DNA of 64,000 nt from assembly GCA_017483305.1 (NCBI GenBank), contig JAFULC010000044.1, positions 127,866 to 191,865 of the forward strand, in the 5' to 3' direction. The position numbers were made by a program, and so were the translations under genes. The notes under the pieces are model-generated. The model did no database searches. It saw nothing but the letters and a program-made list of their open reading frames with translations, and was not told the origin of the DNA. Position 1 is the stretch's first letter; the number at the start of each line of letters is the position of its first letter. Positions 45,860 through 64,000 of this stretch are shown here, piece after piece. This stretch comes from Clostridia bacterium. GTDB taxonomy: Bacteria > Bacillota > Clostridia > Oscillospirales > CAG-272.

Positions 45860-45886
45860 CGCATAGATATTATTATATATTAAAAT

Positions 45887-48048: not shown

Positions 48049-48076
48049 TAGCTTTGATACGGCAGAAGGAGAAATT

Positions 48077-49981: not shown

Positions 49982-50006
49982 AATATAAAAAAGCGAGGAA
50001 ATGATA

Positions 50007-50633: not shown

Positions 50634-50666
50634 AATCACACATTACTTATGCTTTAAGGAGTTATT

Positions 50667-51065: not shown

Positions 51066-51085
51066 TGCAGTGAAAGGAGCAGACT

Positions 51086-51214: not shown

Positions 51215-53448
51215 AAAAACTAATGAAAATAACGTCATTGCTGCTTTCCATAGTCATGCTTACGTCAACATTCACAGGCTGCGGATTTATGTTCGGCGGC
51301 ACCGAGGAGCAGGAGGATGAATTTAATCCGCCGTATCTTGAAAATTACTATGTGAATAAGCATGATCCCGTCGTTGTTTCGGGCGGAATCGAAATACATA
51401 AATACGACGAGGATGCCGAAGCCTTATGGATGGGCGGATATCCTTATCACGGCGGATTTGAGTTCAGAGGCAGCACGTTCGGTGAGAATAAAGCCATAGT
51501 AGATCTGCCCCTTGACGGACTTTATGAGAATATCAGCTTTGTCATCGGTGGCAGATGCGGACACATTACCGAGGTGATCGATGAAGACGGCAATGTTACG
51601 TATCCCTATGATGCCAGTCAGTATAACTGCTCGCCTCCCACGCTTTACGGATATGCGAAAGAGCAAAAGGTAGGTCTTCAGTTCTGGGTGGATGACAAGA
51701 TGGTACAGGAGGTTATTTTCTCCAACTATCAGGTACCTGTCCGTTATACCTTCAACGTTTCGGGTGCACAGAAATTTACCTTCAAGCAGGTAGCGGCAGA
51801 ACCCATTGTTATACCCGTTCTTGAGCTTACTGTTTGGGAGGGAGAAGCCCACGAAACGGGACACATTACCGAACCTGCCGGAAGCGAGCCGGTTCAGCTT
51901 ATCAAGGATCTGAAGCCATATCAGATTCCCGCTACGTCGAGCGCGGTGTATTATCCCAACGTTGACCCTACCTACGAGGGCAGAAACCACATCAATATGA
52001 GCACCATTCGATACGAGAACGTAATAGCAACCTACGTGTCGCAGGGACTTATGACCGATGACGAGGAAGATATTTATTTTAACCTTGAGGGCAAATACAA
52101 TTATCTGACCTTTACCGCGGGTGTAGCAGACAGAACCACGAACAACAGTGATGGCTCGGCATGGCTGACCGTCTATGCCGACGGCAAGATCATTCACGAG
52201 GAGGTCTATTCCTCCCACGAGCTTCCGAGAAGGACAACGGTCAATGTCGAGGGCTGTCATCAGCTCAAATTTGCATGGCTCACTGACGAAGGAAACCTGG
52301 AGTACGGAGACGGAACGGGTAATTTCTTCGGTATCGGCGACGCTTACGTTGCTACCACCGAGGCGGCACTCGAAACGATCAAATATTCTTCCCGTGATCT
52401 GCCCGACAGACCCGTAAAAATGGTATCCGAGCTTGGCGCGTTCGCAATTTCCAGCAGTGTTGAGCAAGCCGTATTTGACGGTTCTTCCCAGCTTAGCACC
52501 TTCTCTATGGGCGGTGTGAAGTACAACGAAGGTATTATTCTCATCGCATCCAACAGTATGCTTGAAACCAGACCTGCGTGCGTATCCTTCAATCTTGGCG
52601 GAAAATACGATACTATCTCCTTTATTGCAGGTCATATTGCCAACAGTGATGTTTACAAGAACGATCAGATCGAGATTTACGCCGACGGCGTTCTGATAAA
52701 GACAATCAATGTGGATTGTACCATGTTGCCTGAGAAATATGTGGTGGACGTAACGGGCTGTCAGCATCTTGAATTTATTTCCGGTAAGGCAACCAACGGT
52801 AGTTGGTATCGCCCTGCGCTGGGTATTGTAAACTTAATTGCTTATCCCGACGGATATGTGGAAACTGATCTCTTCCCCGAGAGAAGTCCCGCAGATTATG
52901 GTAAATCTTGTGATCTGATCGAAACTTTCGGCTTTTATGACGTACATAGCGGAGGACGTACGGAGACCGATATCGGCGGTGTTGACGTTGAGGACGGTTA
53001 TTATGACGGCTCGACTCAGAAAAACTATTTCACAATCGGCGACAGAAAGATTAATAGTGGCGTACTTCTCCGAACCAGCGTGCATTTAAGCTTGGATACA
53101 GATATGATACAAGATGCCATTTTCTTCACTGGATTGGTTGTTTTGGCAGGAGAGGAGGCGCACGAATCGGCGTTTGCTCTGGCGAATATCAAGGACAGCG
53201 GCTATACTTCCGTGACCTTCACTGTTGCAATGCAAAAAGAAACAGGCTATGAGGATGAAACGATCTTAAAGATCGGTGCTGATGACAAATGCGTGAAAGA
53301 GATTACGCTTTTCAAGGATATGAAGCCCACCACGTATACAGTAGAGCTTGGCGAAGATTGCGGAAGACTTTTGTTCTTCCTTGAATGCACCATTGAGGAC
53401 GACACCTCGCATACCTATGCGATCTACGATATTAAACTGAATAAATAA
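51211..53448 (+). CDS. Lipoprotein with four NPCBM-like (putative carbohydrate-binding) repeats
   Basis: 745 aa. Signal/lipobox is LLSIVMLTSTFTGC. Four repeats follow the pattern Y..(I/L)(S/T)F.(A/I)G.......(V/I)..(Y/W).D......(V/I)........(V/Y).V.(V/L).G...L.F, as in NPCBM/F5_F8-like modules. Confidence 0.6.
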   Translation: MKKLMKITSLLLSIVMLTSTFTGCGFMFGGTEEQEDEFNPPYLENYYVNKHDPVVVSGGIEIHKYDEDAEALWMGGYPYHGGFEFRGSTFGENKAIVDLPLDGLYENISFVIGGRCGHITEVIDEDGNVTYPYDASQYNCSPPTLYGYAKEQKVGLQFWVDDKMVQEVIFSNYQVPVRYTFNVSGAQKFTFKQVAAEPIVIPVLELTVWEGEAHETGHITEPAGSEPVQLIKDLKPYQIPATSSAVYYPNVDPTYEGRNHINMSTIRYENVIATYVSQGLMTDDEEDIYFNLEGKYNYLTFTAGVADRTTNNSDGSAWLTVYADGKIIHEEVYSSHELPRRTTVNVEGCHQLKFAWLTDEGNLEYGDGTGNFFGIGDAYVATTEAALETIKYSSRDLPDRPVKMVSELGAFAISSSVEQAVFDGSSQLSTFSMGGVKYNEGIILIASNSMLETRPACVSFNLGGKYDTISFIAGHIANSDVYKNDQIEIYADGVLIKTINVDCTMLPEKYVVDVTGCQHLEFISGKATNGSWYRPALGIVNLIAYPDGYVETDLFPERSPADYGKSCDLIETFGFYDVHSGGRTETDIGGVDVEDGYYDGSTQKNYFTIGDRKINSGVLLRTSVHLSLDTDMIQDAIFFTGLVVLAGEEAHESAFALANIKDSGYTSVTFTVAMQKETGYEDETILKIGADDKCVKEITLFKDMKPTTYTVELGEDCGRLLFFLECTIEDDTSHTYAIYDIKLNK

Positions 53449-53460
53449 GGAGGCAACACC

Positions 53461-54180
53461 ATGAGGTATTTGACTTGGGATGAAGTAAAAAGCCTTGACA
53501 AATTCTTGGTCGAGGACAATGACGATGCCGTCGGCATCGAGATCCATACCGGATTCTATGATCTATCAGCGGACAACCGCTACAGCAAGCCGGAAACAGT
53601 AAAGGCTTATTCTCTGGAGGAACTGGCCGGCGGTGATTTTATCCAGATGGGAACAGAAACCCTGCGTGCAGTGGTGAGCAATCGTCTTTATTGGACGGAT
53701 AGTCGGAATTGGGTTGAAAATTCGGGCACGGATGCTGCCTATATCGGTGCCCGCCGGGGGAACGGATACGAATATGAGCGGGCGATACTGACCTTCAAGG
53801 ATACGCTGGAACGGCTGCCGGACGAGGAAGTGATTTCCCTGAAACGCTTCCTGGTCAGGGACAACAAACGGGTCAAAGCGGTGCGCATCATGCCCGGCTA
53901 TATGGGCATCGGCGGCTCCAATACCTCCGGTTTTTCATCGGATAGTGAGCGGATTCGAGATTACCCTCTGGAATATCTGAAAAACAACGAATTTATATGG
54001 GTCCAGGGCGTTTCTGTTCGGGCGCTGGTGGATGACGTGCTGTATTTCTGCCGCAAGGGCGCTGACGGAAACAGCAAGGTGTTTACCCTGAATTATAGAG
54101 AACGGGATACCATTTTTCATGGTGAGGGTGTCGCCTATGATACGATCGCTGCAACGGAAGTTGTATTGCTGCTTAAGTAA
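53461..54180 (+). CDS. Hypothetical protein (239 aa) with an internal duplication; deviant codon usage
   Basis: LDKFLVEDNDDAVGIEIHTGFYD... is repeated as LKRFLVRDNKRVKAVRIMPGYMG.... CTG/CGG/GTG codons dominate from about 53580. Confidence 0.6.
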   Translation: MRYLTWDEVKSLDKFLVEDNDDAVGIEIHTGFYDLSADNRYSKPETVKAYSLEELAGGDFIQMGTETLRAVVSNRLYWTDSRNWVENSGTDAAYIGARRGNGYEYERAILTFKDTLERLPDEEVISLKRFLVRDNKRVKAVRIMPGYMGIGGSNTSGFSSDSERIRDYPLEYLKNNEFIWVQGVSVRALVDDVLYFCRKGADGNSKVFTLNYRERDTIFHGEGVAYDTIAATEVVLLLK

Positions 54181-54201
54181 GAGAAAGTGAGGAATAACAA
54201 T

Positions 54202-54723
54202 ATGGCTTGGAGAAGTTACTATATTAACTGTGAAAAAATATATGGCATAGACGAAGAAGAAAAAGACGTTTGCATTATGTACGACTTAAATATCCCACCC
54301 CACGGCGGCATCCGAGAGGAATGGACAACAAGGGGAATGAAGAACGGCTCGTCCAAGGTTTTATTTGTGGAGTATTGCAAGGAGGATGACGATCCCGACG
54401 GTGTATGGGAAGCTTTTGGTATGAAGGCAGAATCGGTATATACCTTTACGGTAAATGCGAAAGAGGCAGATCCCGAGAAGCTGTTTGTTTACACCCTTTA
54501 TAAGGACGGCAAGCTTGGTGTCGGATTTGACATCGATACCAACACCGCCCGCGCTATTTTAGTATTTCCCTTCCCTCAGAATATAACCGCAGAGCAATTG
54601 CTTGCCGTTGCGAAAAAAGCAGAGGATGCTCCGCGAGACTTGGAAGCAGTTGAGCAGTTCGTCGTTGAAAATCTGTTGTGTGGTGCGAAAGACGTGACGT
54701 GCCTTGCATTTTTCAACTTGTAA
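54202..54723 (+). CDS. Hypothetical protein (173 aa)
   Basis: GAGGA RBS lies 8 nt before ATG 54202. No family recognised. Confidence 0.55.
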   Translation: MAWRSYYINCEKIYGIDEEEKDVCIMYDLNIPPHGGIREEWTTRGMKNGSSKVLFVEYCKEDDDPDGVWEAFGMKAESVYTFTVNAKEADPEKLFVYTLYKDGKLGVGFDIDTNTARAILVFPFPQNITAEQLLAVAKKAEDAPRDLEAVEQFVVENLLCGAKDVTCLAFFNL

Positions 54724-54768
54724 TCATACAGAATAAAGGCAACTAACCGAAAAAAGGGAGTGATGCTT

Positions 54769-55767
54769 ATGGCAAAGAAGCTTTATTTACATATTAAATG
54801 GGATGAAACAAGAGAAAAAAACGGTTCAAGAGCAGGCGATGACGGCATTTATGACGTAGAGATAAACGAGGGTGATGAGTTTAAGCTCATCTGCCACCTG
54901 AAAAAAGCAACCGTTACGAAGCTCACCGATGACGAGGTAACTCTTGATATTCCCGATAAGGGCGAGTATTTACTTAGGTTGAACGAGACCGCAACGATCC
55001 GTTATAGCGACGGACATCAGTCTTGCGGTGACTGGGTCGACGAGAGATTGACCTACGAGATCAAGCTGTCGAATATGAGCCTTGACGAGTACGAGGCATC
55101 CTTGCCCGAGTTCGATATTAAAGACGGAGTGCTCATAAATGCTCGTCCTAAAGGAGAGGTGGCGGTTGTACCCGAGGGAGTTGTTGAAATCGGGCACAAG
55201 GCCTTCTGTGAGACAAAGATCAAAGAGGTAGTTTTGCCGTCAACTCTTAAAAAAATCAGTTCGTTCGCCTTTTCGAAGTGCCGTTATTTGAAACGTGTAA
55301 CGCTCCCCGAAGGACTGGAAGAATTAGGATTCTACGCCCTTTCTGATACAGCCATCGAGGAGATCAATTTCCCGAGGAGCCTTCGATATATCGACGATAG
55401 CGTCTTTCGCGGAACTCCCTTCCTTAAAAGGATAAAGGACGATAGATTTGTCATACTGGGAGAGCGTTTCCTCTACGGCTACAATGGCTATGACGACACG
55501 GTGGAGATTCCCGACGGTGTTGAGGTTATATGCTCCTGCGCCTTTGACTCAAGAGAGAAAGACAAGGACTATTATTACGTTACACCGAAAAAAATCATTC
55601 TGCCAGATAGCGTAAAACAAATTGATGGATGCGCATTCAGATATCAGTATGGTCTTAGGGAAATTAATTTGCGTGCAGATATGGACATCTCTGCCACAGC
55701 CTTTGACAAATCGGGATATGAGGAAAGCTTTAAGGCGTTCCTCGCCGCTAAAGGTGAGAAAAAATGA
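54769..55767 (+). CDS. BspA-type leucine-rich-repeat (LRR_5) protein with N-terminal small beta module
   Basis: VVPEGVVEIGHKAFCETKIKEVVLPSTLKKISSFAFSKCRYLKRVTLPEGLEELGFYALSDTAIEEINFP are typical ~23-aa BspA LRRs. No signal peptide. Confidence 0.75.
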   Translation: MAKKLYLHIKWDETREKNGSRAGDDGIYDVEINEGDEFKLICHLKKATVTKLTDDEVTLDIPDKGEYLLRLNETATIRYSDGHQSCGDWVDERLTYEIKLSNMSLDEYEASLPEFDIKDGVLINARPKGEVAVVPEGVVEIGHKAFCETKIKEVVLPSTLKKISSFAFSKCRYLKRVTLPEGLEELGFYALSDTAIEEINFPRSLRYIDDSVFRGTPFLKRIKDDRFVILGERFLYGYNGYDDTVEIPDGVEVICSCAFDSREKDKDYYYVTPKKIILPDSVKQIDGCAFRYQYGLREINLRADMDISATAFDKSGYEESFKAFLAAKGEKK

Positions 55768-56234
55768 AGGATTTAGTTATACAATGTAAAGAATACATTG
55801 CAAAAGGCGGCGAATCCATCATAAAAAGAGCGTTCGGAAGAATGCCCCGTATGGCAGAAATCAATATGAGTGAAGTGGAACTCTATATGTTGGAGAATAA
55901 GGACGCTTCATTCAACGAGCTGCTTTTTATGATGATAGACCGAACGGGACAGAAAGACAGCGACGTGTATAAGAGGGCACGAATAGACCGCAGGCTCTTT
56001 TCAAAAATCCGTTCAAGTAAAAAATACGTTCCGTCAAAGAAAACTGTCATTGCGTTGTGCCTCGCTCTTGAGCTTTCGAGAGATGATGCAAATATACTAC
56101 TTGCCTCGGCAGGATACAGCCTGTCAAGGTCGGATGATTACGATCTCGCTATTGCCTTTTGCATATCAAGGGGAATATTTGATTTTAACGATATAAACGA
56201 GCTTTTATATGAATTAGGCTTTGAGGTTTTTTAA
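55764..56234 (+). CDS. HTH-domain protein (XRE-like fold), probable DNA-binding regulator
   Basis: 156 aa. Its ATG overlaps the upstream TGA. DSDVYKRARIDRRLFSKIRSSKKYVPSKKTVIALCLALELSRDDANILLASAGYSL is a recurrent Firmicutes HTH module. Confidence 0.55.
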   Translation: MKDLVIQCKEYIAKGGESIIKRAFGRMPRMAEINMSEVELYMLENKDASFNELLFMMIDRTGQKDSDVYKRARIDRRLFSKIRSSKKYVPSKKTVIALCLALELSRDDANILLASAGYSLSRSDDYDLAIAFCISRGIFDFNDINELLYELGFEVF

Positions 56235-56273
56235 ATAATGCCGACGCATTAAAAAACAGGACAGATCGTAAAT

Positions 56274-56317
56274 GTCGCCGTAAAAGCGACCAAGTAAAAG
56301 CCAAGGTGTGAGATAAT
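56274..56317 (+). promoter_or_regulatory. GTCGC-N7-GCGAC palindrome exactly 21 nt upstream of a GATAAT hexamer (copy 2)
   Basis: GTCGCcgtaaaaGCGAC at 56274-56290 and TGaGATAAT with GATAAT at 56312-56317. About 50 nt of similarity with 45883-45935. Confidence 0.55.
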
Positions 56318-56341
56318 ATAGGCGTAAAGGAGAGTACAATT

Positions 56342-56965
56342 ATGAATAGTATAAGACTTAAAACAAAATACGCAGAAAACGAATTACCAATAGGCGCATC
56401 AAAGCTTTTCGGCAATCCCGACGTCCCCCAAGGCTTCGAGTGGCCGTACATTGAGGTGGATGGTGAGGAGTACGATCTTTCCTTCATCGGGCAGATAAAT
56501 CTTTCCGAGGTTGCAAAGTACGATAAGGACGGTCTGCTTCCGGGGAAAGGTATGCTGTATTTCTTCTACGACCTTGACGAAATGCCTTTTAGCCCCGATA
56601 ATCTTAACGCTTGCAGAGTTATCTATCACGAGAGCGATGAAAACCTTGAGCCTATACGCTTTGTTGACGAGGATGGAGAGGATCTTTCCTTCAGAGAAAT
56701 GCAGGTAGAATTCGAGTGTGTAGAAGCAGGATTTTTGGGCGATGAAGGAGAAACCCACCTGCTTCTCGGTGAACCCTCTATGGATAACGGGTTCTTTTAT
56801 GAGTGCATTGACGGCTGGCAGATGCTATTCCAGCTTGACTCGCTTGAAACCGACGATATTTGCATCAACTTCACCGACGAGGGCTTCCTGTGCTTCTATA
56901 TTGACAAGGAAAAGCTTTCGGAAAAGGATTTTTCCGACGTAAGAATTATGCAGATATACTCTTAA
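56342..56965 (+). CDS. DUF1963 / YwqG-family protein
   Basis: SKLFGNPDVPQGFEWP...LSFIGQINLSEV...LPGKGMLYFFYDL...HLLLGEP...LFQLDS...GFLCFYI is the family hallmark order. Confidence 0.8.
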   Translation: MNSIRLKTKYAENELPIGASKLFGNPDVPQGFEWPYIEVDGEEYDLSFIGQINLSEVAKYDKDGLLPGKGMLYFFYDLDEMPFSPDNLNACRVIYHESDENLEPIRFVDEDGEDLSFREMQVEFECVEAGFLGDEGETHLLLGEPSMDNGFFYECIDGWQMLFQLDSLETDDICINFTDEGFLCFYIDKEKLSEKDFSDVRIMQIYS

Positions 56966-56977
56966 AGGAGGCTTATT

Positions 56978-57181
56978 ATGGCTGAAAAATTAAAATGCCC
57001 ATACTGCGGTAGCGAAAACCTAACCCGTATGGACGGCAGCGGAACTCTAAAGAAATACGGCAACGACGTTATGATCGATATCGCTCCCGACATCGTTTAC
57101 TGTAACGATTGCAAAAAGGATTTCAGAGCACCGTTCTTTGACGATCTGACGCTCGACGAGGCGATTTTAGATCAAGAGTGA
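56978..57181 (+). CDS. Zinc-ribbon mini-protein (67 aa)
   Basis: CPYCGS...CNDCKK, with RBS AAAGGAGG. Confidence 0.6.
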   Translation: MAEKLKCPYCGSENLTRMDGSGTLKKYGNDVMIDIAPDIVYCNDCKKDFRAPFFDDLTLDEAILDQE

Positions 57182-57191
57182 GGTGATTACG

Positions 57192-57473
57192 ATGAAATTA
57201 AAAATCATTGATTATTTCTGGGCAGTTGGACACAGGACGAAAAGAAAGGGCTCTCACAAAATTCCCCTTGCCGAAGGCGAGTTGCGTGAAATTAACTATG
57301 TGCAGTTCAGAATTGACAAGGTGGAAAAGGATAAGGCGCAGATTTCGGTTATCCGTCGTGACGGAACGGTTATAAAGGAAATCACCGTAGAAAAAGGCCG
57401 ACGTTCCTACTACCATCCAAGGTCTATGGATGCAGGACACGAATATACACTGAAGCTTACAAAATTTTTCTAA
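57192..57473 (+). CDS. Small beta-module protein (93 aa), member of the island's recurrent mini-domain set
   Basis: VQFRIDKVEKDKAQISVIRRDGTVIKEITVEKGRRSYY, with RBS GAGGTG. Confidence 0.55.
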   Translation: MKLKIIDYFWAVGHRTKRKGSHKIPLAEGELREINYVQFRIDKVEKDKAQISVIRRDGTVIKEITVEKGRRSYYHPRSMDAGHEYTLKLTKFF

Positions 57474-57492
57474 ACATAAAAGGAGAAAAATC

Positions 57493-57720
57493 ATGGATAA
57501 GAAGGAATTTAAGAATTTACTTGCAAAAGCTGAAGGCGGCGATGCGGAAGCAATGTATCTTGTAGGACTTGAGTATGAAGCAGGTGAGGTCGTTACAGCC
57601 GACGGCGAAAAGGCTATCGAATGGATGAATAAGGCTGCCGACCTTGGACATAAGGAGGCGCTTGATTGGCTCAAGCAGTATTACTTTGATGATGATGCCG
57701 GCACACAGGCTTATTCTTAA
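57493..57720 (+). CDS. Sel1-repeat protein (75 aa)
   Basis: AEGGDAEAMYLVGLEYEAGEVVTADGEKAIEWMNKAADLGHKEA. Confidence 0.75.
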   Translation: MDKKEFKNLLAKAEGGDAEAMYLVGLEYEAGEVVTADGEKAIEWMNKAADLGHKEALDWLKQYYFDDDAGTQAYS

Positions 57721-57735
57721 CAGGAGGTGAATGCC

Positions 57736-57999
57736 ATGGAGAGAGAAAAAGCTCGCTGTACAAAATGCGGTGCCTTTGAAGTGGTATTCGTGGATCGAAG
57801 CGCCAATCCATTCAATACCAAGCCCCCAAGATTCGTTTGTCAGAAATGCGGTTGCGAATACGAGCTTGATTCGGGCATCGGCGTAATGAATCGCAATACG
57901 ATAAATCCCTTCCCATGCCCCGAGCGTGACCTTGACATTGACGATCCGTTTACAGCAGAGATGAAAGAAAGGATCAAGTCAATGAGAAAAACCGATTAA
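57736..57999 (+). CDS. Zinc-ribbon mini-protein (87 aa)
   Basis: CTKCGA...CQKCGC. AGGAGG lies 8 nt before ATG 57736. Confidence 0.6.
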   Translation: MEREKARCTKCGAFEVVFVDRSANPFNTKPPRFVCQKCGCEYELDSGIGVMNRNTINPFPCPERDLDIDDPFTAEMKERIKSMRKTD

Positions 58000-58017
58000 G
58001 CATAGGAGGAAGAAGAT

Positions 58018-58596
58018 ATGTCAAGAGAATTTGATTATGCAATGGAGCTGAAAAAGAACAGCAACGTCGAAGAAGCAAAGGCTTATTTTGAAAAAGCTGC
58101 GCAGGGTGGCGAGCCCGAGGCATATATGGAGCTTGCAAGGCTTGCAGTTCCCGAGGCGGGTGAGCATTATTACAACTATTCAAAGCTTGACGTAACCCTG
58201 CTGCCTCTGGGCTATCACAAAACTGAATTTGAATATTATCTCAAGGCGAGTGAGCTCGGTCACACAAGAGCCATGGTTTACGTCGGAATTGCCTATAAGC
58301 AAGGATATCTCGTAAACCGTGACTACGATATGGCATTTAATTATTTTGCAAAGGCGACTGAATTAGGTGACGATTATCTCGCTCCCTACTATCTTGCCGA
58401 ATGCTATGAAAATGCGCTCGGCACCGAGATGGACGAAAACGCAGCGGTGCTTTACTACACAATGTGCGCCGAGCACGGTAACATCCCTGCAATGCTTGCT
58501 CTTGCAAGAATTTATAAAGAGGGTCTTGGTAGTATTGAAAAGGATGAACAAAAATCAACAAGATACTTCTTTATGAGTGGTATTGGAAGAAATTGA
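58018..58596 (+). CDS. Sel1-repeat protein (192 aa)
   Basis: AAQGGEPEAYMELARL, ASELGHTRAMVYVGIAYKQG, ATELGDDYLAPYYLAECYENALG and CAEHGNIPAMLALARIYKEGLG. Confidence 0.8.
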   Translation: MSREFDYAMELKKNSNVEEAKAYFEKAAQGGEPEAYMELARLAVPEAGEHYYNYSKLDVTLLPLGYHKTEFEYYLKASELGHTRAMVYVGIAYKQGYLVNRDYDMAFNYFAKATELGDDYLAPYYLAECYENALGTEMDENAAVLYYTMCAEHGNIPAMLALARIYKEGLGSIEKDEQKSTRYFFMSGIGRN

Positions 58597-58661
58597 TATC
58601 AGCTATCAGTATAAAAACATAATTATTACAAGGTTTTGAAATCTTTAGAGGAGAATGTGTG

Positions 58662-59786
58662 ATGAAAGAGGAAATCAAAAATCAAATCCTCGGTTTGTCG
58701 ATATATAACGCGCGTACCGAAAAAGAGGACATCGTATGGATTGCAAAAGAGCTTTGCGAAAAGTACGGTTGGAGAACCGATGATATGATATATACACGCA
58801 CTGGTTTCGATCCGGTCGAGCACCGTCAGTACAGCGAGGTCGTTCGTGATGAACGCAAGGCTTGGAATTACACTGTTGATGCGGCGCTTGAGGAAAAGGA
58901 CGTTTATGCCATCGCAACTCTGCTGTTTTTCAAGAAATACGGCACGATTGACGAGACTGCTTTCTATGTAACCAAGGAGTCGCTTTTGAGGGATATAGTA
59001 GAAATACTTGAAAGCATCGAGGAAAAGGACGCATTTGTTTATTTCCTTATCGGCAAAGCGAATTTCATAGCGCGCGGAGTAGAATATGACTTTGATAAAG
59101 CGCACGAGTGCTTCCTTTTGGCGGCTGACGGCGGTATTGAGATTGCAAAACTGTTTGCCCTCGAGATCGAAGACGATTTTGAGGGAATCTTCAAGGAAGC
59201 GAGTAAGTTGATTGAGAAGTATCCCGATAGTCACATTATTAAGTTCTACCTCGCATTCTGCTGTTATTACGGTTACGGAACCGAGAAGAATTATGAAAGG
59301 GTAGTAGAGCTCGTCAAATATACCGAAACAATAGAAAACTATAACGACGATCCCATAGATTACTATTTTCTTTCAAGCAGATATTTGCTTGGACTTTGCT
59401 ACTTCCACGGCTATGGTGTGGAGAAAAATCTCAGCCGAGCGGAGCTGCTGTTCAGATATTCTGCCAGCGCAGGCACTCCCGAAGCGTATTACTGCCAGGC
59501 AATAACCAAACTTTTATCGGATGACAGTAAACATACGGGGTATATATACGATCTTTTGAAGAAAAGCGCGTACGGTTATTATCTCCCGGCGATCAGAAAG
59601 TTTATGCTTTGTCTCCGAAAGGGCTACGGCACCACACCCGACAAGGAGCAGTATGTTGCATTCTCGGACTATTATGATCACTACAAAGAAACTCAAAAAA
59701 ACACCTCTGATCTTGGAGTTGAAGCGGATCATTGCAATCTTATCGATCACGAAAACAACATCATCGAGGACGATGAAATAGACTAA
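58662..59786 (+). CDS. Sel1/TPR-like repeat protein (374 aa)
   Basis: AADGGIEIAKLF, YYGYGTEKNYERVVEL, LGLCYFHGYGVEKNLSRAELLFRYSASAGTPEAYY. The antisense ORF 58626-59234 is rejected. Confidence 0.7.
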   Translation: MKEEIKNQILGLSIYNARTEKEDIVWIAKELCEKYGWRTDDMIYTRTGFDPVEHRQYSEVVRDERKAWNYTVDAALEEKDVYAIATLLFFKKYGTIDETAFYVTKESLLRDIVEILESIEEKDAFVYFLIGKANFIARGVEYDFDKAHECFLLAADGGIEIAKLFALEIEDDFEGIFKEASKLIEKYPDSHIIKFYLAFCCYYGYGTEKNYERVVELVKYTETIENYNDDPIDYYFLSSRYLLGLCYFHGYGVEKNLSRAELLFRYSASAGTPEAYYCQAITKLLSDDSKHTGYIYDLLKKSAYGYYLPAIRKFMLCLRKGYGTTPDKEQYVAFSDYYDHYKETQKNTSDLGVEADHCNLIDHENNIIEDDEID

Positions 59787-59803
59787 ATTCAGGAGGAAAC
59801 GCT

Positions 59804-60028
59804 ATGGAGAACAAAAGAAATTACAAATACGATCCTGTCGAGGATACTTCCGAATATCTTGCAATAAAGGACGAGCTTGAGGCAAAAATCATTGAAAGAA
59901 TGGGCGGCGAAATGACAAGAGGTAACGCACATCTGTACACCACTCTCAAAAAGGAAATTTTGAAGAAGGATTACGGCATTGATTGGAAGTCGCCTCAGGA
60001 GTTAAATCCGAGGATAAAATTTAACTGA
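59804..60028 (+). CDS. Hypothetical protein (74 aa)
   Basis: AGGAGG RBS, helical and charged. No family. Confidence 0.5.
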   Translation: MENKRNYKYDPVEDTSEYLAIKDELEAKIIERMGGEMTRGNAHLYTTLKKEILKKDYGIDWKSPQELNPRIKFN

Positions 60029-60029
60029 T

Positions 60030-60320
60030 ATGAAATTAACGTATAAGTATACCGTGCACGGCTTCTCCGGCGGTATGATGCTCTCTAACACCGTATACGG
60101 CGAATGGGATTTTAATTCGTTTGAGGTCGGTTCACAGCTCGAGAGCGTAAACACCGAAGTGAAAATAACCGTGCTTGAAAAGAATAGCGACAGCGTAACT
60201 ATAAAGGTCGCGTATCGTAAAAATGAAAAAACGATGACCGTTTCCACCGTGAGTGAGGAATGGTTTAAGGATGATGCCAACGCTTACGGATTTGCCTTTG
60301 CGTTTACCGTGAAGGAGTAA
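60030..60320 (+). CDS. Small beta-module protein (96 aa)
   Basis: The start lies 1 nt after the upstream stop. EVKITVLEKNSDSVTIKVAYRKNEKTMTVS. Confidence 0.5.
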   Translation: MKLTYKYTVHGFSGGMMLSNTVYGEWDFNSFEVGSQLESVNTEVKITVLEKNSDSVTIKVAYRKNEKTMTVSTVSEEWFKDDANAYGFAFAFTVKE

Positions 60321-60334
60321 GGAGGTGTAGAGGA

Positions 60335-61402
60335 ATGATCAAAAAAATCAGCACGGAGTATCCTCATATTGACGCATATCGAGATGTGAAGCCCGAAATT
60401 GATGCTGCAATAAAAAAGGTTAAGTTTTTGCTTGGCTACCAAAAAACCTATTTTGCAGTTCAAAGGGATCTGAGAGTGGCTTTGCGCCGTATGACTAATG
60501 ATGCGCTTATTGAAAAAATGCAAGCGGAGAAAAACACGGCTTTTCTTGATGAAATCAGAAGATCAACACCTCATAAGGCTACCATAGAAAAGCTGATTGG
60601 GGACATAGACGTCTTTGAAGCGGAAAACAAAAAGCTCCTCTCTGCAATTATTAAAAACGGTAAGCTTGACAGCAAAGAATTTGCCGTAATCTATCCGTAT
60701 CTTTACACGCTTGCCGAGGACAACACCTCGCACGATAGAATTTCCCCCGAGCTCATACTGTTCTTTGCTGAAAACACGAAGGAAAAATGCTATCTTTCAT
60801 CCGTAGATGAATACGCAATTTTTTACTATCTGCTCATTAAGATAAAGGCTAAAGGCAGATATGGATTTGCATATCCTCACTTGGCTGATGAGCTTGTCTC
60901 GTGTATTGAGAACTCGGCGAATATGCCAATGAAGAGCCGTATGGAATTTTATCTTGAGGCAGGCGATTATTACTTAAAATCTTGTCAAAGAGATAAAGCA
61001 ATGTCTTGCTATAAAAAAGCAGCTCTCACCGCCAAGGAAAGTGGCGACGTTGAAGGCTCGGCATATGCTATGCAAAAGTATTACAGAGTGAATCAGAGCT
61101 TTCCCGAACCAATGCAGATAAAACCCAACGTGGAAGAAATTCAAGCGGAATACGGAAAATACTCTCCGATTGTATTGCAAGGTATAACCGCTCCCACGTT
61201 CAAGGTAGATCCTATTGAATTTACCGAAAACTTTGCTGAAAAATACCAAGCGGTTATGTGGAAGGTTGAAGCGGAAATCGATAAGACCAGAGATCTTAAT
61301 TCGGTTTATCAACGCTGGAACCTGATGGAAAAATATTTTGCTGAAATAAATACTCCGTGGAGATGCCCTAAGGCTATGAATCCCGGTATGATGTTTGACT
61401 GA
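60335..61402 (+). CDS. Hypothetical helical (TPR-like) protein (355 aa)
   Basis: YLEAGDYYLKSCQRDKAMSCYKKAALTAKESGDVEGSAYAMQKYY. Confidence 0.55.
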   Translation: MIKKISTEYPHIDAYRDVKPEIDAAIKKVKFLLGYQKTYFAVQRDLRVALRRMTNDALIEKMQAEKNTAFLDEIRRSTPHKATIEKLIGDIDVFEAENKKLLSAIIKNGKLDSKEFAVIYPYLYTLAEDNTSHDRISPELILFFAENTKEKCYLSSVDEYAIFYYLLIKIKAKGRYGFAYPHLADELVSCIENSANMPMKSRMEFYLEAGDYYLKSCQRDKAMSCYKKAALTAKESGDVEGSAYAMQKYYRVNQSFPEPMQIKPNVEEIQAEYGKYSPIVLQGITAPTFKVDPIEFTENFAEKYQAVMWKVEAEIDKTRDLNSVYQRWNLMEKYFAEINTPWRCPKAMNPGMMFD

Positions 61403-61409
61403 GGTGAAT

Positions 61410-61763
61410 ATGGAAAAAATCAGAGTAAGCGTATATTGGGAAGTAGGAAAAGATGAAGCCGGAAATCAGCTTATCAGCTATTTAAGAGATGACCTTGCCG
61501 AAATCAAGCTCGGTGTCCTCGATAAAGAAGAGGATATTGGGGTGGAAATCATCGAAATTTCCAATGATGAGATCACCGTTAAGGCAGACGGCAAGAAATA
61601 TCCCCTCAAGAAAGGCGAACGTGTGGAGTTTGATTGCTGGACGGGCTACTACGGCGATAGTAGCGATAACCAATATTTCTTCATCATCTCTTGGGAGGAT
61701 GAAGCGATAAGCAATTACACCGAAACTATGCTGGATCTAAAAAAAGATTACATAAAGAATTAA
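61410..61763 (+). CDS. Small beta-module protein (117 aa)
   Basis: GVEIIEISNDEITVKADGKKYPLKKGERVEFDCW...YFFIISW. RBS GAGGTG. The track's TTG at 61395 is rejected. Confidence 0.55.
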   Translation: MEKIRVSVYWEVGKDEAGNQLISYLRDDLAEIKLGVLDKEEDIGVEIIEISNDEITVKADGKKYPLKKGERVEFDCWTGYYGDSSDNQYFFIISWEDEAISNYTETMLDLKKDYIKN

Positions 61764-61776
61764 GGAGAAGCGCGAA

Positions 61777-62667
61777 ATGGAAGATAAAAAGTTTTTAAGA
61801 GTAACAGGTAAACGAGTAGAAAAGAACGGAAATATCGTAGCTGAGGCAACGGCAGTTGTGCCATATATTAAGGGTGGCGCAGCCAAGCTGCCCGACGTGG
61901 CTCCCTTTAACACAAACGTATGGCTCTGCGGCGACGATGGATTCAATATGAAGTGGATCGAATATACCAGCACCGGTAAGATTGCATATTTTTACGACAA
62001 GTATTACGACCTTGTTGACGGAAAAGCGCACGCAGAGTGCGAGATCAAGGGCGATAATATGATTTTCGACTTTGAGCTTATCGACCTTCGCAAAAACGCT
62101 GATTACGCAATCGCAATGAAGGTTAGAAAGGTAGAGCCCGGTGAAAAGATCGACGAGGGCTGTAGCAAGTTCTTCGGCAGTCCCTGTCTCCCCACGGCAG
62201 ATGATCCATATCCCGATGACGGTGTGTTCTTTGCACAAATTAGATGTGAGGATCTCAAGGATCTTGATCCCGACAACAGACTTCCTCACGAGGGATATCT
62301 TTACTTCTTCCTTGATGCCGAGATGTATCCCTCCGATGACCTTTATATGATGGTTAAGCATACCCTTGAAGAGCCTAAGTATATTCTTGACGATTACAAC
62401 GAGGAGTGTAACATCAAGGGTTTAACCGATACCTACGTTATTACCTTTGAAAAGGTTGATGCAGGATATAGCGGAACAAAGCTCCTCGGCTATCCGAGCA
62501 ACGACGTTGACGATAACGGAGACAGGGGCGGTCTGCTTCTTCAGTACGATCCGCTTGATTTTGACGTACCCTTCCTTTCAACCTGTGACGGATACGCATT
62601 CGTATTCTTTGGTGACAGCGAGGAAAACAAGTTCTCCGGCGCAGATTACGTTGTCTGGGGATCTTAA
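61777..62667 (+). CDS. DUF1963 / YwqG-family protein with ~130-aa N-terminal extension
   Basis: SKFFGSPCLP...FFAQIRCEDL...LPHEGYLYFFLDAEM...KLLGYPS...LLLQYDPLD...GYAFVFF. Confidence 0.75.
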   Translation: MEDKKFLRVTGKRVEKNGNIVAEATAVVPYIKGGAAKLPDVAPFNTNVWLCGDDGFNMKWIEYTSTGKIAYFYDKYYDLVDGKAHAECEIKGDNMIFDFELIDLRKNADYAIAMKVRKVEPGEKIDEGCSKFFGSPCLPTADDPYPDDGVFFAQIRCEDLKDLDPDNRLPHEGYLYFFLDAEMYPSDDLYMMVKHTLEEPKYILDDYNEECNIKGLTDTYVITFEKVDAGYSGTKLLGYPSNDVDDNGDRGGLLLQYDPLDFDVPFLSTCDGYAFVFFGDSEENKFSGADYVVWGS

Positions 62668-62838
62668 ATTCTCTACGCATTTATCTCAAAAATGGTGTTA
62701 TATTAATAAGCTTAGGAAAAAATTATGTCAATTTATTTTAGCAACGCTGGGGCATCTTTGTAAACGGTGAATATCAGCCCGATATGACTTGGGAAGAATT
62801 CTTTGATGCATACAGCGATGTAAAAAAGGTTTAAAGAT

Positions 62839-63195
62839 ATGAATGTAAAGCCGATTATTCACGTTCACTACATTAACGACGACTATAAATCATGGAATCC
62901 TCCACGTGAAGCTAACTTTGAAAAGTATTTATTGGCAACTCCCGGAAGAATTTTTGAAAGTTGCGGAGGATTTGATCCGTTGGACGTGCTTTCCGTTTCC
63001 TCTGACGAGATTGTTATTAGGTTGGATGAAAAAACAAAATCACTCCACCCCGGCGAAACTATTACTATGCACTATGAGTTGCCGGGACTGATCGCTGACG
63101 GCAGCGGATTTGAGTATTTCACCTTAACCGTCCACTGGCTTACAGAAGAGGAAGCGAAATCAGTCGTCGCCGAGCCGATGGGAAAACAAGGATAA
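62839..63195 (+). CDS. Small beta-module protein (118 aa)
   Basis: DVLSVSSDEIVIRLDEKTKSLHPGETITMHYE...YFTLTVHW, the same pattern as 61410-61763. Confidence 0.55.
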   Translation: MNVKPIIHVHYINDDYKSWNPPREANFEKYLLATPGRIFESCGGFDPLDVLSVSSDEIVIRLDEKTKSLHPGETITMHYELPGLIADGSGFEYFTLTVHWLTEEEAKSVVAEPMGKQG

Positions 63196-63253
63196 AATGC
63201 ACCATTTCCGATTTCGGCAGTTCATTGTATTAACGAATGGGTTATTACACAAG

Positions 63254-63288
63254 AAAAAAGCCAAGTCGAATTTCGACTTGGCTTTTTT
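63254..63288 (+). terminator. Terminator closing the island's second operon
   Basis: AAAAAAGCCAAGTCGAA-TTTCGACTTGGCTTTTTT. Confidence 0.9.
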
Positions 63289-63290
63289 CA

Positions 63291-63473
63291 GTGAAATTCG
63301 TTCCTGCGGAACGAGTGAAATACGCTGGCGCGTGTGAAATTGCCTGCGGCAGTGAAATACGCCTACGGCGTGTGAAGGAACGAATTTTATTTCACATTGC
63401 GACCAACGGGAGCAATATTTCACCATTTCCGCAAGGAAATTATTTCACATTCGGCGCAAGCCGAATATTTCAC
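63291..63473. repeat. Mirror-symmetric motif/hairpin array B: GTGAAAT x4 (+1 degenerate) forward, then ATTTCAC x4 reverse, interleaved with unrelated short hairpins
   Basis: Forward copies at 63291, 63315, 63334 and 63352, with a degenerate one at 63372. Reverse copies at 63389, 63417, 63442 and 63467. Hairpins include TCGTTCC-tgc-GGAACGA, ACGCC-tac-GGCGT, ATTTCC-gcaa-GGAAAT and ATTCGGC-gcaa-GCCGAAT. Confidence 0.8.
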
Positions 63474-63502
63474 TTGAAATGTTCACAGATTTGTGATATA
63501 AT
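63474..63502 (+). promoter_or_regulatory. Sigma-A promoter (TTGAAA-17-TATAAT), right copy of the island-bracketing promoter/leader module
   Basis: TTGAAAtgttcacagatttgtgaTATAAT. Confidence 0.75.
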
Positions 63503-63526
63503 GAAGCCAAGAAAGGCGGGAACAGA

Positions 63527-64000
63527 ATGAGAGATGATTTGAAATTATATAAGCATCATAAAAATTATTCTATCTATAAATCTGAACAAGGATGGCTAAA
63601 TTACTATTCCGACGGTGCAATTGAATCGTTGCAAATGGTTCCCGGTGAGTTTGATCCAAAAACTTATAAATTCTCTCCAAGCAAAATAACCGTTCAATAT
63701 AGAACCGGAGAAATATATCAATGGGAAACCTTGTACATAAACGGTTATAACATGGGACAGTTCGGGATTGCAGTTACGACTGACGGCAAGATGGTCTTTG
63801 CTCAAACTTGGGAAAATGGACTATTTTGTTTTGACGCTAAAACAGGTGAACGGATTTGGCGAACTAAGAGTCGTCGCGGTATAACTAACATATTTGTGGG
63901 TGATAACACCATTACAGCGCAGTTGCACGATTACGCAATGCAACTGATCGACATCAAAACGGGGGATGTTTTGATGGAAAAGCGCCCTTGTACCGCTTGG
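63527..64000 (+). CDS. 5' part of a CDS running off the window; PQQ/beta-propeller-like repeats
   Basis: MRDDLKLYKHHKNYSIYKSEQGW...GLFCFDAKTGERIWRTKS...AQLHDYAMQLIDIKTGDVL. Open to nt 64000. RBS AAAGGCGGG. Not in the ORF track because it has no stop. Confidence 0.6.
   Translation, partial: MRDDLKLYKHHKNYSIYKSEQGWLNYYSDGAIESLQMVPGEFDPKTYKFSPSKITVQYRTGEIYQWETLYINGYNMGQFGIAVTTDGKMVFAQTWENGLFCFDAKTGERIWRTKSRRGITNIFVGDNTITAQLHDYAMQLIDIKTGDVLMEKRPCTAW

Follow-up and report, generated by a model that had tools for sequence, protein, structure and literature searches.

The array and its surroundings

The window, meaning the whole 64,000-nt stretch of DNA that was analysed, carries two related arrays of 7-nt words and hairpins. 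These arrays bracket a 19-kb accessory island, as had been proposed earlier. The order is tRNA-Trp, a hairpin (hp0_A) and array A, then the island, then a second hairpin (hp0_B) and array B; the unit upstream of array B is here the last gene of the island. Array B (63291-63473) consists of four GTGAAAT words and a truncated fifth, followed by four ATTTCAC words, with unlike hairpins between them. Every segment between two words is an end-to-end palindrome, and all of these sequences differ. The array fills exactly the gap between the T-run of the terminator-like hairpin and the -35 box of the next promoter. The main features are listed below; words, hairpins and the components of hp0 were located by reading the sequence.

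43872-43947: tRNA-Trp gene
43984-44165 (43947-44165 with hp0), + strand: array A, a sister module of the ATGAAAT/ATTTCAT sub-family
63251-63288, unstranded: hp0, a bidirectional intrinsic-terminator-like hairpin, within the 228-position HMM that matches 46 arrays
63251-63259, 63260-63282 and 63283-63288: A-run, stem-loop GCCAAGTCGA-ATT-TCGACTTGGC and T-run of hp0
63289-63363, + strand: forward half, the Gut-1 motif (RF01706), made up of CA, F0 GTGAAAT, hp1, F1, hp2, F2, hp3 and F3
63291, 63315, 63334 and 63352, + strand: forward words GTGAAAT
63293-63304, unstranded: 5' arm of a long-range inverted repeat, GAAAT plus the 5' arm of hp1 (from complementarity and covariation)
63298-63314, 63322-63333 and 63341-63351: left-half hairpins hp1, hp2 and hp3
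63359-63371, unstranded: hp4, ACGCC-TAC-GGCGT
63372-63376, unstranded: truncated fifth word GTGAA, conserved at the same place in alignment A1
63377-63388, unstranded: central block GGAACGAATTTT, reverse complement of F0 plus the 5' arm of hp1, and mirror axis
63384-63475, - strand: reverse half, a diverged Gut-1 copy in inverted orientation (RF01706), made up of R1 ATTTCAC, hp5, R2, hp6, R3, hp7 and R4
63389, 63417, 63442 and 63467: reverse words ATTTCAC
63396-63416, 63424-63441 and 63449-63466: right-half hairpins hp5, hp6 and hp7
63474-63479 and 63497-63502, + strand: -35 box TTGAAA and -10 box TATAAT of a sigma-70-type promoter abutting R4 (11/12 consensus matches)
63527, + strand: ATG of a PQQ-like beta-propeller gene (PF13360), after the promoter and an extended SD, AGAAAGGCGG

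The words, the differing hairpins, the two GCAA loops (hp6 and hp7) and the complementarity between the first unit and the centre (GAAATTCGTTCC, 63293-63304, with GGAACGAATTT, 63377-63387) all lie where the original prediction had placed them. Regarding the borders, the upstream terminator and the flush contact with the -35 box hold, but the gap after the T-run is 2 nt (CA) and not 3. The hairpin hp0 has a 10-bp stem followed by T6 and preceded by an A-run, as expected of an intrinsic terminator, and it belongs to the repeated module. Two partners are possible for the segment 63293-63304, namely the 3' arm of hp1 (63308-63314) or the central block. In the reverse half, hairpin length rises to 17-21 nt and the stem bases are A/T-rich. 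The downstream promoter has a 17-nt spacer containing a TG (extended -10). With its end at 63473, R4 occupies positions -43 to -37 of a strong promoter, as it does in about a third of the arrays compared.

The non-random character that had been claimed for the array was borne out. Eight of the window's 19 exact 7-mer matches (both strands) fall within these 183 bp, where shuffles gave an expectation of about 0.03, and folding of the 229-nt element gives z = -10 to -13 against dinucleotide shuffles, whichever strand is taken and whether as RNA or DNA. Together with the presence of the same grammar in dozens of other genomes, this excludes chance.

A conserved module related to Gut-1

The forward half of array B matches the Rfam family Gut-1 with 56.4 bits (gathering score 50, E = 1.7e-08) and fits its layout of three consecutive hairpins of variable sequence parted by GUGAAAU. 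The reverse half, taken on the minus strand, scores 49.3 bits (E = 9.8e-09), just below the gathering score; in two other arrays (L093 and L076) the half corresponding to it passes the threshold. Judged by these matches, array B is a pair of back-to-back inverted Gut-1 copies and not a new kind of element, and the Gut-1 identity that the model match gives to the forward half had been missed before. Array A, which directly follows tRNA-Trp and hp0_A, has the same grammar as array B, as predicted, and is matched by Gut-1 on both strands below the gathering threshold (47 and 29.8 bits). A near-identical array of the A type is also found in L372. Gut-1 was rated as an RNA from covariation by Weinberg in 2010, in a one-sentence description that does not mention a mirrored half (PMC2864571). 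The flanks of the 2010 alignment already contain this mirrored half.

The comparison set consisted of about 45 related arrays from gut Clostridia MAGs, and the HMM matches 46 arrays. The hosts are uncultured and include Oscillospiraceae, Ruminococcaceae, Acutalibacteraceae and Christensenellaceae. A lack of conservation in related genomes had been named as an outcome that would speak against the original prediction; the grammar is kept across these arrays. In order, the module comprises a bidirectional terminator hairpin, four forward units, a central block that is the complement of the first of these, and three to four reverse units, and in every composite array the forward words come first and the reverse words second. 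The seven hairpins of one array all differ, the orientation flips once, in the centre, and the identity of each unit is position-specific across genomes. First unit and central block are complementary over 10-13 nt in 31 of 33 arrays, in at least six sequence types. This long-range helix covaries, with 94% of the cells paired, compensatory changes at 8 of 12 pairs and none of 500 shuffles as good. The hairpins are maintained across loci by compensatory changes as well.

Whole arrays switch their word together, giving the sub-families GTGAAAT, ATGAAAT and GTGATAT, and sub-families with their own word coexist within one genome. In the case of GTGATAT, a metagenome scan returned mostly unrelated tandem repeats and only five usable loci (L245, L261, L281, L306 and L314). 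Sites that are not orthologous carry arrays at least 90% identical, in species with flank GC contents anywhere from 31% to 58%. From word to word the distance is 16-20 bp in the left half and 24-25 bp in the right half, without helical phasing. Other lineages carry forward-only variants (half-arrays) that are followed by a hairpin and T-run of their own, and in L110 the halves are rearranged and duplicated. A comparison of strains for gain or loss of units, as had been proposed, gave an identical array B in five other contigs, all of the same strain.

A tRNA gene lies directly upstream of 22 of the 46 arrays (ARAGORN), always on the same strand, and about 27 of 46 arrays follow a tRNA when 3' ends read by eye are included. 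The Gut-1 match was on the strand of the upstream tRNA in 20/20 loci tested with Rfam. The module always opens with a hairpin, usually flanked by A- and T-runs, that abuts the end of a co-oriented unit, and identical hp0 sequences stand behind different tRNAs in different genomes. After some tRNA genes of the examined loci the array is absent. All arrays lie between genes, 23 in tandem and 13 in convergent settings (n=36). Some are followed by a tRNA or a terminator, and in L088 the array sits inside a tRNA operon, between tRNAs. The promoter at 63474-63502 is a neighbour and no constant part of the module, as only about a third of the arrays have one. The proposed reading as a regulator-binding array tied to the downstream promoter fails as a general one, although the array may still control the promoter at this particular locus: the constant partner is the upstream terminator hairpin, only about a third of the arrays abut a promoter, and the next gene is convergent in 13/36.

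The commonest downstream gene encodes a PF05635 (Avd-like) protein; the window contains no such gene. An identical hp0-array-PF05635-MazG module stands behind tRNA-Pro in some genomes and tRNA-Arg in others. Modules are found at cassette or island borders in the case of the window's island, of L066 and L034, where near-identical arrays form direct repeats around accessory genes, and of L372 when compared with L366. Insertions of mobile elements interrupt the tRNA/hp0 junction itself in L365 and L377. The window's tRNA-Trp and hp0_A recur in L018 and in a contig of run X32, where a B-like array follows hp0_A with nothing in between; the junctions share GGCTTTTTTCA.

The arrays are multi-copy, with two in the 64-kb window, several per MAG and array segments at 10-60x the flank depth in DNA metagenomes, whose assemblies break at the array, at island borders. 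Four metatranscriptomes showed a depth peak of 30-70x over 63415-63477 that could be taken for expression. The profile is matched in four DNA metagenomes, so this peak is the collapse of a multi-copy repeat. Runs labelled organism B and C likewise gave no evidence on expression. No promoter of their own was found for the Gut-1 arrays.

The two strands of the hairpins differ in their loops. On the GTGAAAT strand, triloops are TNC in 129 cases vs GNA in 10 and tetraloops TNNC in 70 vs GNNA in 6, mostly closed by C-G. This asymmetry places the well-capped hairpins on the ATTTCAC-reading strand, i.e. on the bottom strand in the left half and on the top strand in the right half. Isolated wobbles (46 G.T vs 34 A.C) show no RNA-type bias. 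Of the array hairpins, only hp7 with its tail resembles a terminator closely enough to pass a consensus scan. Weak A/T stem bases and TTNTTT are features of NusA/NusG-assisted Bacillus terminators (PMC8060035). As TTNTTT occurs in just 53 of 172 right-half units (31%) and 9 of 121 left-half units (7%), an assignment to NusG-type terminators is weak and was rejected. Likeness of the word to ParB/Noc half-sites, DnaA boxes, -35 or extended -10 elements and integron cores reaches 5-6 of 7 positions, a level expected by chance.

Possible roles of the module

We read the module as a cis-acting boundary that marks where a transcription unit ends and works in either direction. This is a tentative reading, possible rather than probable, and on the best reading of the data neither a promoter operator nor a free sRNA is favoured. 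Such a boundary would act through nucleic-acid structure, the bounded unit being most often a tRNA gene, and would take up the untranscribed DNA that separates this unit from the next promoter or convergent gene. Whenever a polymerase or replication fork crosses it, in either direction, the half reached second would present tandem short hairpins, which may form in vivo in the nascent or displaced strand, each capped by a C-GNA-G or C-GNNA-G loop and then followed by the T-rich ATTTCAC. Together with hp0, these hairpins could lead to back-up pausing or termination, and a neighbouring promoter or tRNA gene would be shielded from read-through on either side. A sub-family-specific factor, presumably a protein, probably recognises the 7-nt word, which is invariant. 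Being a repeat scattered over tRNA 3' flanks, the module may also be a break-point for the gain or loss of islands and cassettes, e.g. the 19-kb island.

Several observations count for this boundary. Tandem and convergent settings fit it and do not fit a promoter element, and the start of hp0 at the end of a co-oriented unit, the mirror symmetry intrinsic to the arrays and the positions at cassette or island borders point the same way. So do the opposite-sense loop asymmetry with the absent wobble bias, and the terminator-likeness of hp7 with the weak right-half stem bases and TTNTTT. Against it, the left hairpins have only 4-5 bp and 3-nt loops, ATTTCAC is a poor U-tract, hp7 is the sole hairpin that is terminator-like by classical criteria, and TTNTTT is sparse. 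An insulator would need neither an invariant GTGAAAT and the switching of words by whole arrays nor the high identity of arrays between species of differing flank GC. The tRNA genes that lack an array also speak against it, and the forward-only variants with their own terminator and the L088 array suit an RNA better.

That Gut-1 is a genuine sRNA made from the GUGAAAU-reading strand is somewhat unlikely. It could be a 3'-trailer from tRNA or operon read-through, or one of a convergent RNA pair, and work as a CsrB- or TRAP-style sponge in which single-stranded GUGAAAU between the hairpins would soak up an RNA-binding protein. The fit to the Rfam model is good, and covariation had led to the published rating (PMC2864571). 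Forward-only variants followed by a hairpin and T-run resemble an sRNA gene, the L088 array between tRNAs of one operon must be transcribed, and hairpins flush with the words would leave the latter as single-stranded linkers. In composite arrays, however, pairing between forward and reverse words would mask the sites proposed for binding. A promoter would not fit into the space from hp0 to the first word, the minus-strand copy lacks a consistent promoter, the loop asymmetry favours the opposite strand, and G.U does not stand above A.C. Tens of copies per genome would be unusual for a sponge RNA, and the metatranscriptome depth mirrors DNA copy number.

A selfish or semi-domesticated repeat of the REP/BIME or MITE kind is unlikely. 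Here an enzyme acting in trans (HUH/RAYT-like or another recombinase) would read the word and its hairpin on single-stranded DNA and be responsible for copying or maintaining the element, with any effect on the host incidental. C-G-closed GNA and GNNA loops are a signature of extra-stable DNA mini-hairpins, which counts for such a repeat, as do the multi-copy state and the breaks in assemblies, the extragenic and palindromic units, the word sub-families sharing one genome, the near-identity of arrays that occupy non-orthologous sites in species far apart in GC and the rearranged, duplicated halves in L110. True REPs are near-identical, though, whereas the units within one array differ and are position-specific, and the strict position flush after a terminator or tRNA does not fit either. 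No transposase or RAYT was enriched among 150 neighbouring proteins (8-kb loci), and the element as a whole showed neither target-site duplications nor terminal inverted repeats.

Equally unlikely is that hp0 and array form a recombination or attachment site, at which cassettes of array, promoter, genes and terminator would move at tRNA 3' flanks in an integron-like manner, a recombinase acting in trans on folded DNA with the words as arm-type binding sites. The direct tRNA-Trp/hp0_A junctions of L018 and the X32 contig with their shared sequence, the direct-repeat arrays of L066/L034, the half-arrays and the identical hp0-array-PF05635-MazG modules behind tRNA-Pro or tRNA-Arg would suit such a site. 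The module size (~230 bp) and the mirrored arm sites also resemble the lambda-type attP. Ordinary integration at tRNA 3' ends with homologous recombination between repeats would nevertheless explain the same patterns, and the boundaries would match the ends of transcription units anyway. Most arrays flank no obvious cassette, and the 19-kb island contains no integrase. A dedicated recombinase was rejected after a Pfam scan of the 150 neighbouring proteins gave no enrichment (integrase in no more than 2/150), and by sequence reading no integron R''/R' cores (RYYYAAC ... GTTRRRY) are visible at the array ends.

A duplex operator or activating array, to which an omega-like (pSM19035) or ParR-like regulator would bind cooperatively to control the abutting promoter, with PF05635 as candidate, is quite improbable. 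It would account for R4 next to the -35 box here and in about a third of the arrays, for words that are invariant within an array, for the layout of direct and then inverted repeats and for PF05635 genes being commonest downstream; the ATATCAC[A/T] sub-family matches the omega heptad, WATCACW, which is a lead only. It leaves the hairpin covariation, the loop asymmetry and the long-range helix unexplained. The spacing is variable and out of helical phase, words lie 9-21 nt apart, unlike contiguous heptads, a convergent gene faces 13/36 arrays, a tRNA or terminator follows others, and the window is without a PF05635 gene.

Very improbable, finally, is a joint claim in which the composite array is a folded single-strand (DNA or RNA) ladder with 7-bp rungs F0-R4, F1-R3, F2-R2 and F3-R1 and three perfect four-way junctions of two hairpin arms each, read by the often adjacent pentameric Avd-like PF05635 protein as a previously unrecognised platform that captures and exchanges promoter-bearing gene cassettes at tRNA 3' flanks. 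The ladder formed by pairing of F and R words is the DNA-parameter minimum-free-energy fold of both strands. This fold was set aside as it lacks covariation support, the words hardly varying; F0 is mostly CGAAAT across arrays and makes only 5 bp with R4, and L314 has variant words at non-partner positions. A link to DGRs through the Avd-like gene was likewise rejected, since ORF lengths and N-termini, rather than Pfam, gave no RT-like ORF beside the PF05635 genes of L008, L042, L058, L060 and L073.

Gut-1 has been an orphan since 2010, with one sentence in the literature searched, no organism and no function. What is new are its hosts, a fuller anatomy, a genomic address, the PF05635 neighbour and strand evidence that questions the RNA annotation. 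If the module were a portable bidirectional insulator, this would explain how highly expressed tRNA genes are walled off from horizontally acquired cassettes, and it would be a useful engineering part for gut Firmicutes. Should it prove to be a recombination platform or a structured DNA bound by protein, the mechanism would be new. On the practical side, the repeat causes metagenome assemblies to break at island borders.

Comparison with known systems

The REP/BIME elements of enterobacteria occur in many copies, always outside genes and at the ends of operons, as mosaics of short palindromes in both orientations; they have coexisting sub-families and are hot spots of rearrangement. The arrays resemble them in being multi-copy, extragenic, placed at unit ends, mosaics of palindromes, diverse in coexisting sub-families and prone to rearrangement. 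REP units, however, are near-identical copies of alternating orientation linked to RAYT transposases, whereas in the arrays all hairpins differ, a constant 7-nt word stands between them, the orientation changes once in the centre and no RAYT was seen.

In the case of omega (pSM19035) and ParR-parC, heptads are contiguous, act as duplex DNA and are bound by ribbon-helix-helix proteins. Similar features of the arrays are the 7-bp words in direct and inverted runs, the 8-10 words per array and the position upstream of a promoter; different are the conserved hairpins that space the words and the many promoterless arrays. The GNA and GNNA mini-hairpins, such as d(GCGAAGC), and the extruded promoters of phage N4 are single hairpins with a defined protein partner, either the N4 virion RNA polymerase or a primase. 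The arrays share with them C-G-closed stems of 4-7 bp with GNA or GNNA loops on one strand, but have seven putatively extruding hairpins in series with mirror symmetry.

Integron attC and lambda attP sites are also comparable, being structured, with folded strands or ~230 bp with mirrored arm sites, and the arrays likewise lie at cassette or island borders beside tRNA genes. Unlike these sites, the arrays are without R'/R'' cores and without an adjacent integrase, and each cassette has its own promoter.

The closest likeness is to Gut-1 itself, with its three variable hairpins parted by GUGAAAU and its source in gut metagenomes. Rfam describes Gut-1 as ~77 nt on one strand, of the type 'Gene; sRNA', from 'human gut only' and with no organism. 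The motif in array B is half of a ~220-bp mirror-symmetric DNA module, which further contains a terminator hairpin, a long-range inverted repeat that covaries and a second half in inverted orientation. Unlike the organism-less Gut-1 of Rfam, this module sits after tRNA genes in Clostridia MAGs, and its loop asymmetry argues for the strand opposite to the one given in Rfam.

Architecture of arrays A and B

The sequence from 62700 to 64000 was read and indexed, and the layout that had been claimed for array B, the mirrored array of words and hairpins at 63291-63473, was confirmed in full. Its elements and those of the sister array A are listed below on the forward strand.

63251-63259, 63260-63282 and 63283-63288: A-run, stem-loop and T-run of hp0_B, the terminator-like hairpin opening array B, followed by CA
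63291, 63315, 63334 and 63352: forward words GTGAAAT (F0 to F3)
63372: truncated word GTGAA
63377-63388: central block GGAACGAATTTT
63389, 63417, 63442 and 63467: reverse words ATTTCAC (R1 to R4)
63474: TTGAAA of a sigma-70-type promoter, then 17 nt with TG, and TATAAT at 63497-63502
63527: start of the downstream ORF, PQQ-like
43949-43983: hp0_A, the corresponding hairpin of array A
43984-44165: array A, words CTAAAT/ATAAAT/ATGAAAT x2 forward and ATTTCAT x4 reverse

Every segment between two words (hairpins hp1 to hp7) is an end-to-end palindrome, and the sequences are all different. The predicted GCAA loops were located in hp6 and hp7, the first unit does complement the central one (GAAATTCGTTCC, 63293-63304, against the central block), and the array stands flush against the -35 box, with R4 ending at 63473. 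Eight of the 19 word matches of the window fall inside the 183 bp of array B, and, whether treated as RNA or DNA, either strand of the element folds 10-13 SD better than its shuffles. Clustering and fold scores thus exclude chance.

In an Rfam scan of the whole window nothing was found besides tRNA-Trp and one Gut-1 RNA (RF01706), which matched the plus strand at 63289-63363 with 56.4 bits (gathering score 50). At a relaxed threshold a second Gut-1 match appeared on the minus strand (63475-63384, 49.3 bits). Because RF01706 matches the plus-strand half and the minus-strand half, array B is, at the sequence level, a pair of convergent, inverted copies of the Gut-1 motif. Array A shares this architecture, as proposed, with the same pair of matches (47 and 29.8 bits). 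It lies (within 43872-44235) directly 3' of tRNA-Trp and its terminator, and its word is ATGAAAT/ATTTCAT. The promoter that follows it, TTGAAATGTCCACGGATTTGTGCTATAAT, is nearly identical to that after array B, with about 40 extra nt between array and promoter.

Relatives, consensus module and word families

One genome per species was scanned for the pattern, which gave more than 120 loci. The same composite was found in MAGs of gut Clostridia, Eubacteriales, Oscillospiraceae, Ruminococcaceae, Acutalibacteraceae and Christensenellaceae, and the grammar is thus conserved in related genomes, always with the forward words first and the reverse words second. An HMM built from 27 arrays detected 46 arrays in these loci and the window, and more in IMG/VR and metagenome loci. 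The consensus module reads as follows.

Part 1: hp0, a long G+C hairpin, usually with A6 and T6 at its flanks
Part 2: CA(A/G)(C/T)GAAAT (F0), then hp1
Part 3: three GTGAAAT words, interleaved with the short hairpins hp2-hp4 (9-13 nt)
Part 4: GTGAg, then the central block
Part 5: four ATTTCAC words with the longer hairpins hp5-hp7 between them (17-18 nt; stems begin with A[A/T]T)

The T-run of hp0 is absent in a minority of modules that stand behind no tRNA. The span from F0 to R4 is 173-185 nt; the median pairwise identity of the arrays is 74%, reaching 92% across species with flanks of 31%-58% GC. The forward half exceeded the Gut-1 threshold in each of the 20 loci tested, the hit and the upstream tRNA always sharing a strand. 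Other arrangements were also seen: two tandem forward halves, five reverse hairpins and a third forward half in L110 (1150-1750), and, in other lineages, forward-only versions with their own hairpin and T-run at the end.

F0 together with the 5' arm of hp1 forms a new, strongly covarying inverted repeat with the central block. The complementarity extends over 10-13 nt in 31 of 33 arrays, in at least six different sequences. In the alignment of related arrays (A1), 94% of the cells are paired and 8 of the 12 pairs show changes on both sides; none of 500 shuffles reached this pairing score, and sliding the partner columns of the central block by 1-3 positions left at most 65% paired. Hairpin hp1 and the long-range repeat compete for one 5' arm. 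The minimum-free-energy fold as DNA is a 'ladder' of three four-way junctions, which was rejected, as it has no covariation support and is contradicted by locus L314.

Several word families could be distinguished. A GTGATAT family (L245, L261, L306, L314, and L281 with ATATCG[C/A]) keeps the whole grammar, down to F0 and the central block, which have changed to match; so between families about ten words switch in concert. Array A and an array in L372 belong to an 'A-type' sub-family, and two word families coexist within the window's genome and likewise in L372.

Genomic address and neighbours

ARAGORN placed a complete tRNA gene directly upstream of 22 of the 46 arrays, with many different anticodons, all on the same strand and with CCA abutting the A-run of hp0; after reading of the flanks the number rose to about 27. 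One and the same hp0 sequence can stand behind different tRNAs in different genomes, so the terminator is part of the repeat. Some tRNA genes in the examined loci carry no array. In L088 (6650-7200) the array, with only a weak hp0, sits between tRNA-Arg and tRNA-His of one operon, 10 nt upstream of tRNA-His.

Between arrays A and B (44249-63195) lie genes for MORN, NPCBM, LRR_5, Sel1 and DUF1963 proteins. Elsewhere in the window, three very large consecutive ORFs (1758, 1567 and 1691 aa) occupy 15017-30671 of the plus strand. In L018 (2040-2160), a B-like array comes straight after tRNA-Trp and the hp0 of array A, and run X32 has a contig with this join, its tRNA-Trp 3' end being exactly that of the window. 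Compared with these, the window has array A, the island and hp0_B inserted at the hp0/array junction, and the 19.3-kb region between the arrays behaves as an indel. The junctions (43945-43985 and 63250-63290) have CAAGAAAAAAGCCA in common left of hp0 and GGCTTTTTTCA on its right. In L066 and L034, near-identical arrays (98.9%) flank accessory genes as direct repeats. Given these joins and repeats, the earlier remark on an island border is apt. On two IMG/VR 'viral' contigs an array lies beside an endolysin gene at an apparent prophage-host junction (L239, 11458-13257) and beside a weak terminase-like ORF (L127, 3489-5177).

A protein of about 115 aa of the Avd-like family PF05635 is encoded within about 50 nt after the array in L008, L042, L058, L060, L073, L261 and L053, and also, frameshifted or as a fragment, in L027 and L239. 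Pfam names the family '23S rRNA intervening sequence protein', a four-helix bundle, and its relatives include the DGR accessory protein Avd (PMC10053308). The gene is absent from the window, and in the ORF listing (not a Pfam scan) no reverse-transcriptase-like ORF was seen near PF05635 genes. A Pfam scan of 150 proteins neighbouring arrays showed PF05635 and LRR_5 as the commonest families, PF05635 being the commonest right after arrays. For two close homologues the module lies directly upstream in 20 of 20 fetched contigs (L365-L384), and an identical block hp0-array-PF05635-MazG-like stands behind tRNA-Pro(cgg) or tRNA-Arg(acg), depending on the genome.

Mobile elements, with a large serine recombinase in L365 (1-1232) and PDDEXK/DUF2800 genes in L377 (1-1231), lie exactly between the expected tRNA (CCA) and hp0. 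The L377 element end GTTATTACGCAG resembles GTTATTACACAAG, just upstream of hp0_B (63241-63252), and the L365 end AGTCATTTGCCAG resembles AGTCATTAGCCAG, upstream of the second L066 array. More distant PF05635 genes (L085 4850-5850, L113 5016-5800 and L022 900-1900) likewise come after a tRNA and a terminator, but the mirrored short repeats on either side of them are of other kinds (CTCTTCAC... / ...GTGAAGAG; AGAAATGAGAAATT runs). In L085 the PF05635 gene is followed by 11 nt that duplicate the tRNA 3' end, and then by hp0 and a Gut-1 forward half. Judged by its sequence, this duplication is the signature of site-specific insertion into a tRNA 3' end.

Two further features were observed downstream of arrays. 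A motif of about 55 nt, TAAAAAnCG...GAGTTCGAAT...AAAATATCTTTTT, stands just after R4 in L043, L117, L116 and L031; it includes GAGTTCGAAT, which is like a tRNA T-arm, and may be a tRNA fragment or another repeat. Post-array genes share a long Shine-Dalgarno region, AGAAAGGCGG(T/G)G, 6-9 nt upstream of the start codon (window 63503-63529 and 44229-44251; L018, L042, L060, L066, L366), probably just the extended SD of the clade, though the 5' UTRs thereby look homologous.

Possible roles and the relation to Gut-1

Where metatranscriptome contigs contain the array, depth peaks at 63415-63477; DNA metagenomes have this peak too, so it is uninformative on expression. Loops were read on the GTGAAAT strand for 540 inter-word hairpins from all fetched loci, among which unrelated repeats could dilute an asymmetry but not create one. 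TNC exceeded GNA triloops (129 vs 10) and TNNC exceeded GNNA tetraloops (70 vs 6), so the well-capped GNA and GNNA loops belong to the strand that reads ATTTCAC, in the left half the bottom and in the right half the top strand. Most loops have a C-G closing pair, and GNRA accounts for no more than about two thirds of the tetraloops. C-GNA-G and C-GNNA-G are classic extra-stable DNA mini-hairpin loops. A true sRNA or a protein sponge is the less likely reading: the capped strand is opposite to Rfam's choice, isolated G.T pairs on it barely exceed A.C (46 vs 34), unlike in typical structured RNAs, and array B is a mirror-symmetric element between an efficient terminator and a -35 box, without its own promoter. 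Loop asymmetry, wobble counts and position, taken together, tip the balance somewhat towards a cis role, DNA-level or co-transcriptional, and away from a free-standing sRNA.

Tentatively, the module could be a direction-independent boundary element. Here hp0 would terminate in both directions, and to a polymerase or fork crossing either way the second-reached half would present, on the nascent or displaced strand, a tandem row of capped hairpins with a T-rich word after each. Counted for this reading are the terminator-like score of hp7 and, in the right half, weak A/T stem bases with TTNTTT in 31% of units, both known from NusA/NusG-assisted terminators in Bacillus (PMC8060035). Arrays also occupy tandem and convergent intergenic regions (next gene co-directional in 23 cases, convergent in 13) and borders of acquired cassettes. 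Its weak points are the tiny left hairpins with a poor U-tract, and that an insulator would work without an invariant word and without concerted word changes across a family; the latter point to a family-specific reader or to concerted evolution.

Apart from this boundary reading, a REP/BIME-like selfish repeat is rather improbable. In its favour, in DNA metagenomes the left half reaches 10x and the right half 30-60x the depth of the single-copy flank, and two contigs of the window's own strain terminate exactly at the array. Equally improbable is a recombination or attachment site for cassettes; no integrase was found among the genes at 44249-63195, and no recombinase enrichment among the 150 neighbouring proteins. 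The original model of a promoter operator is the least probable, a strong promoter following immediately after only about one third of arrays.

Altogether, array B is a further member of the known orphan family Gut-1 and no new kind of element. Weinberg et al. 2010 described Gut-1 from human-gut sequences, in no sequenced organism, as probably a non-coding RNA (PMC2864571), and it is mentioned nowhere else in the literature searched. The flanks printed in their Stockholm file already contain the mirrored half, and the GTGATAT/ATATCAC variant is visible there as well (PMC2864571). To this our analysis adds how the module is composed, a long-range helix with covariation, an address behind tRNAs and terminators, evidence on the strand, a role at island borders and the association with PF05635, which together make this 15-year-old orphan motif experimentally approachable.
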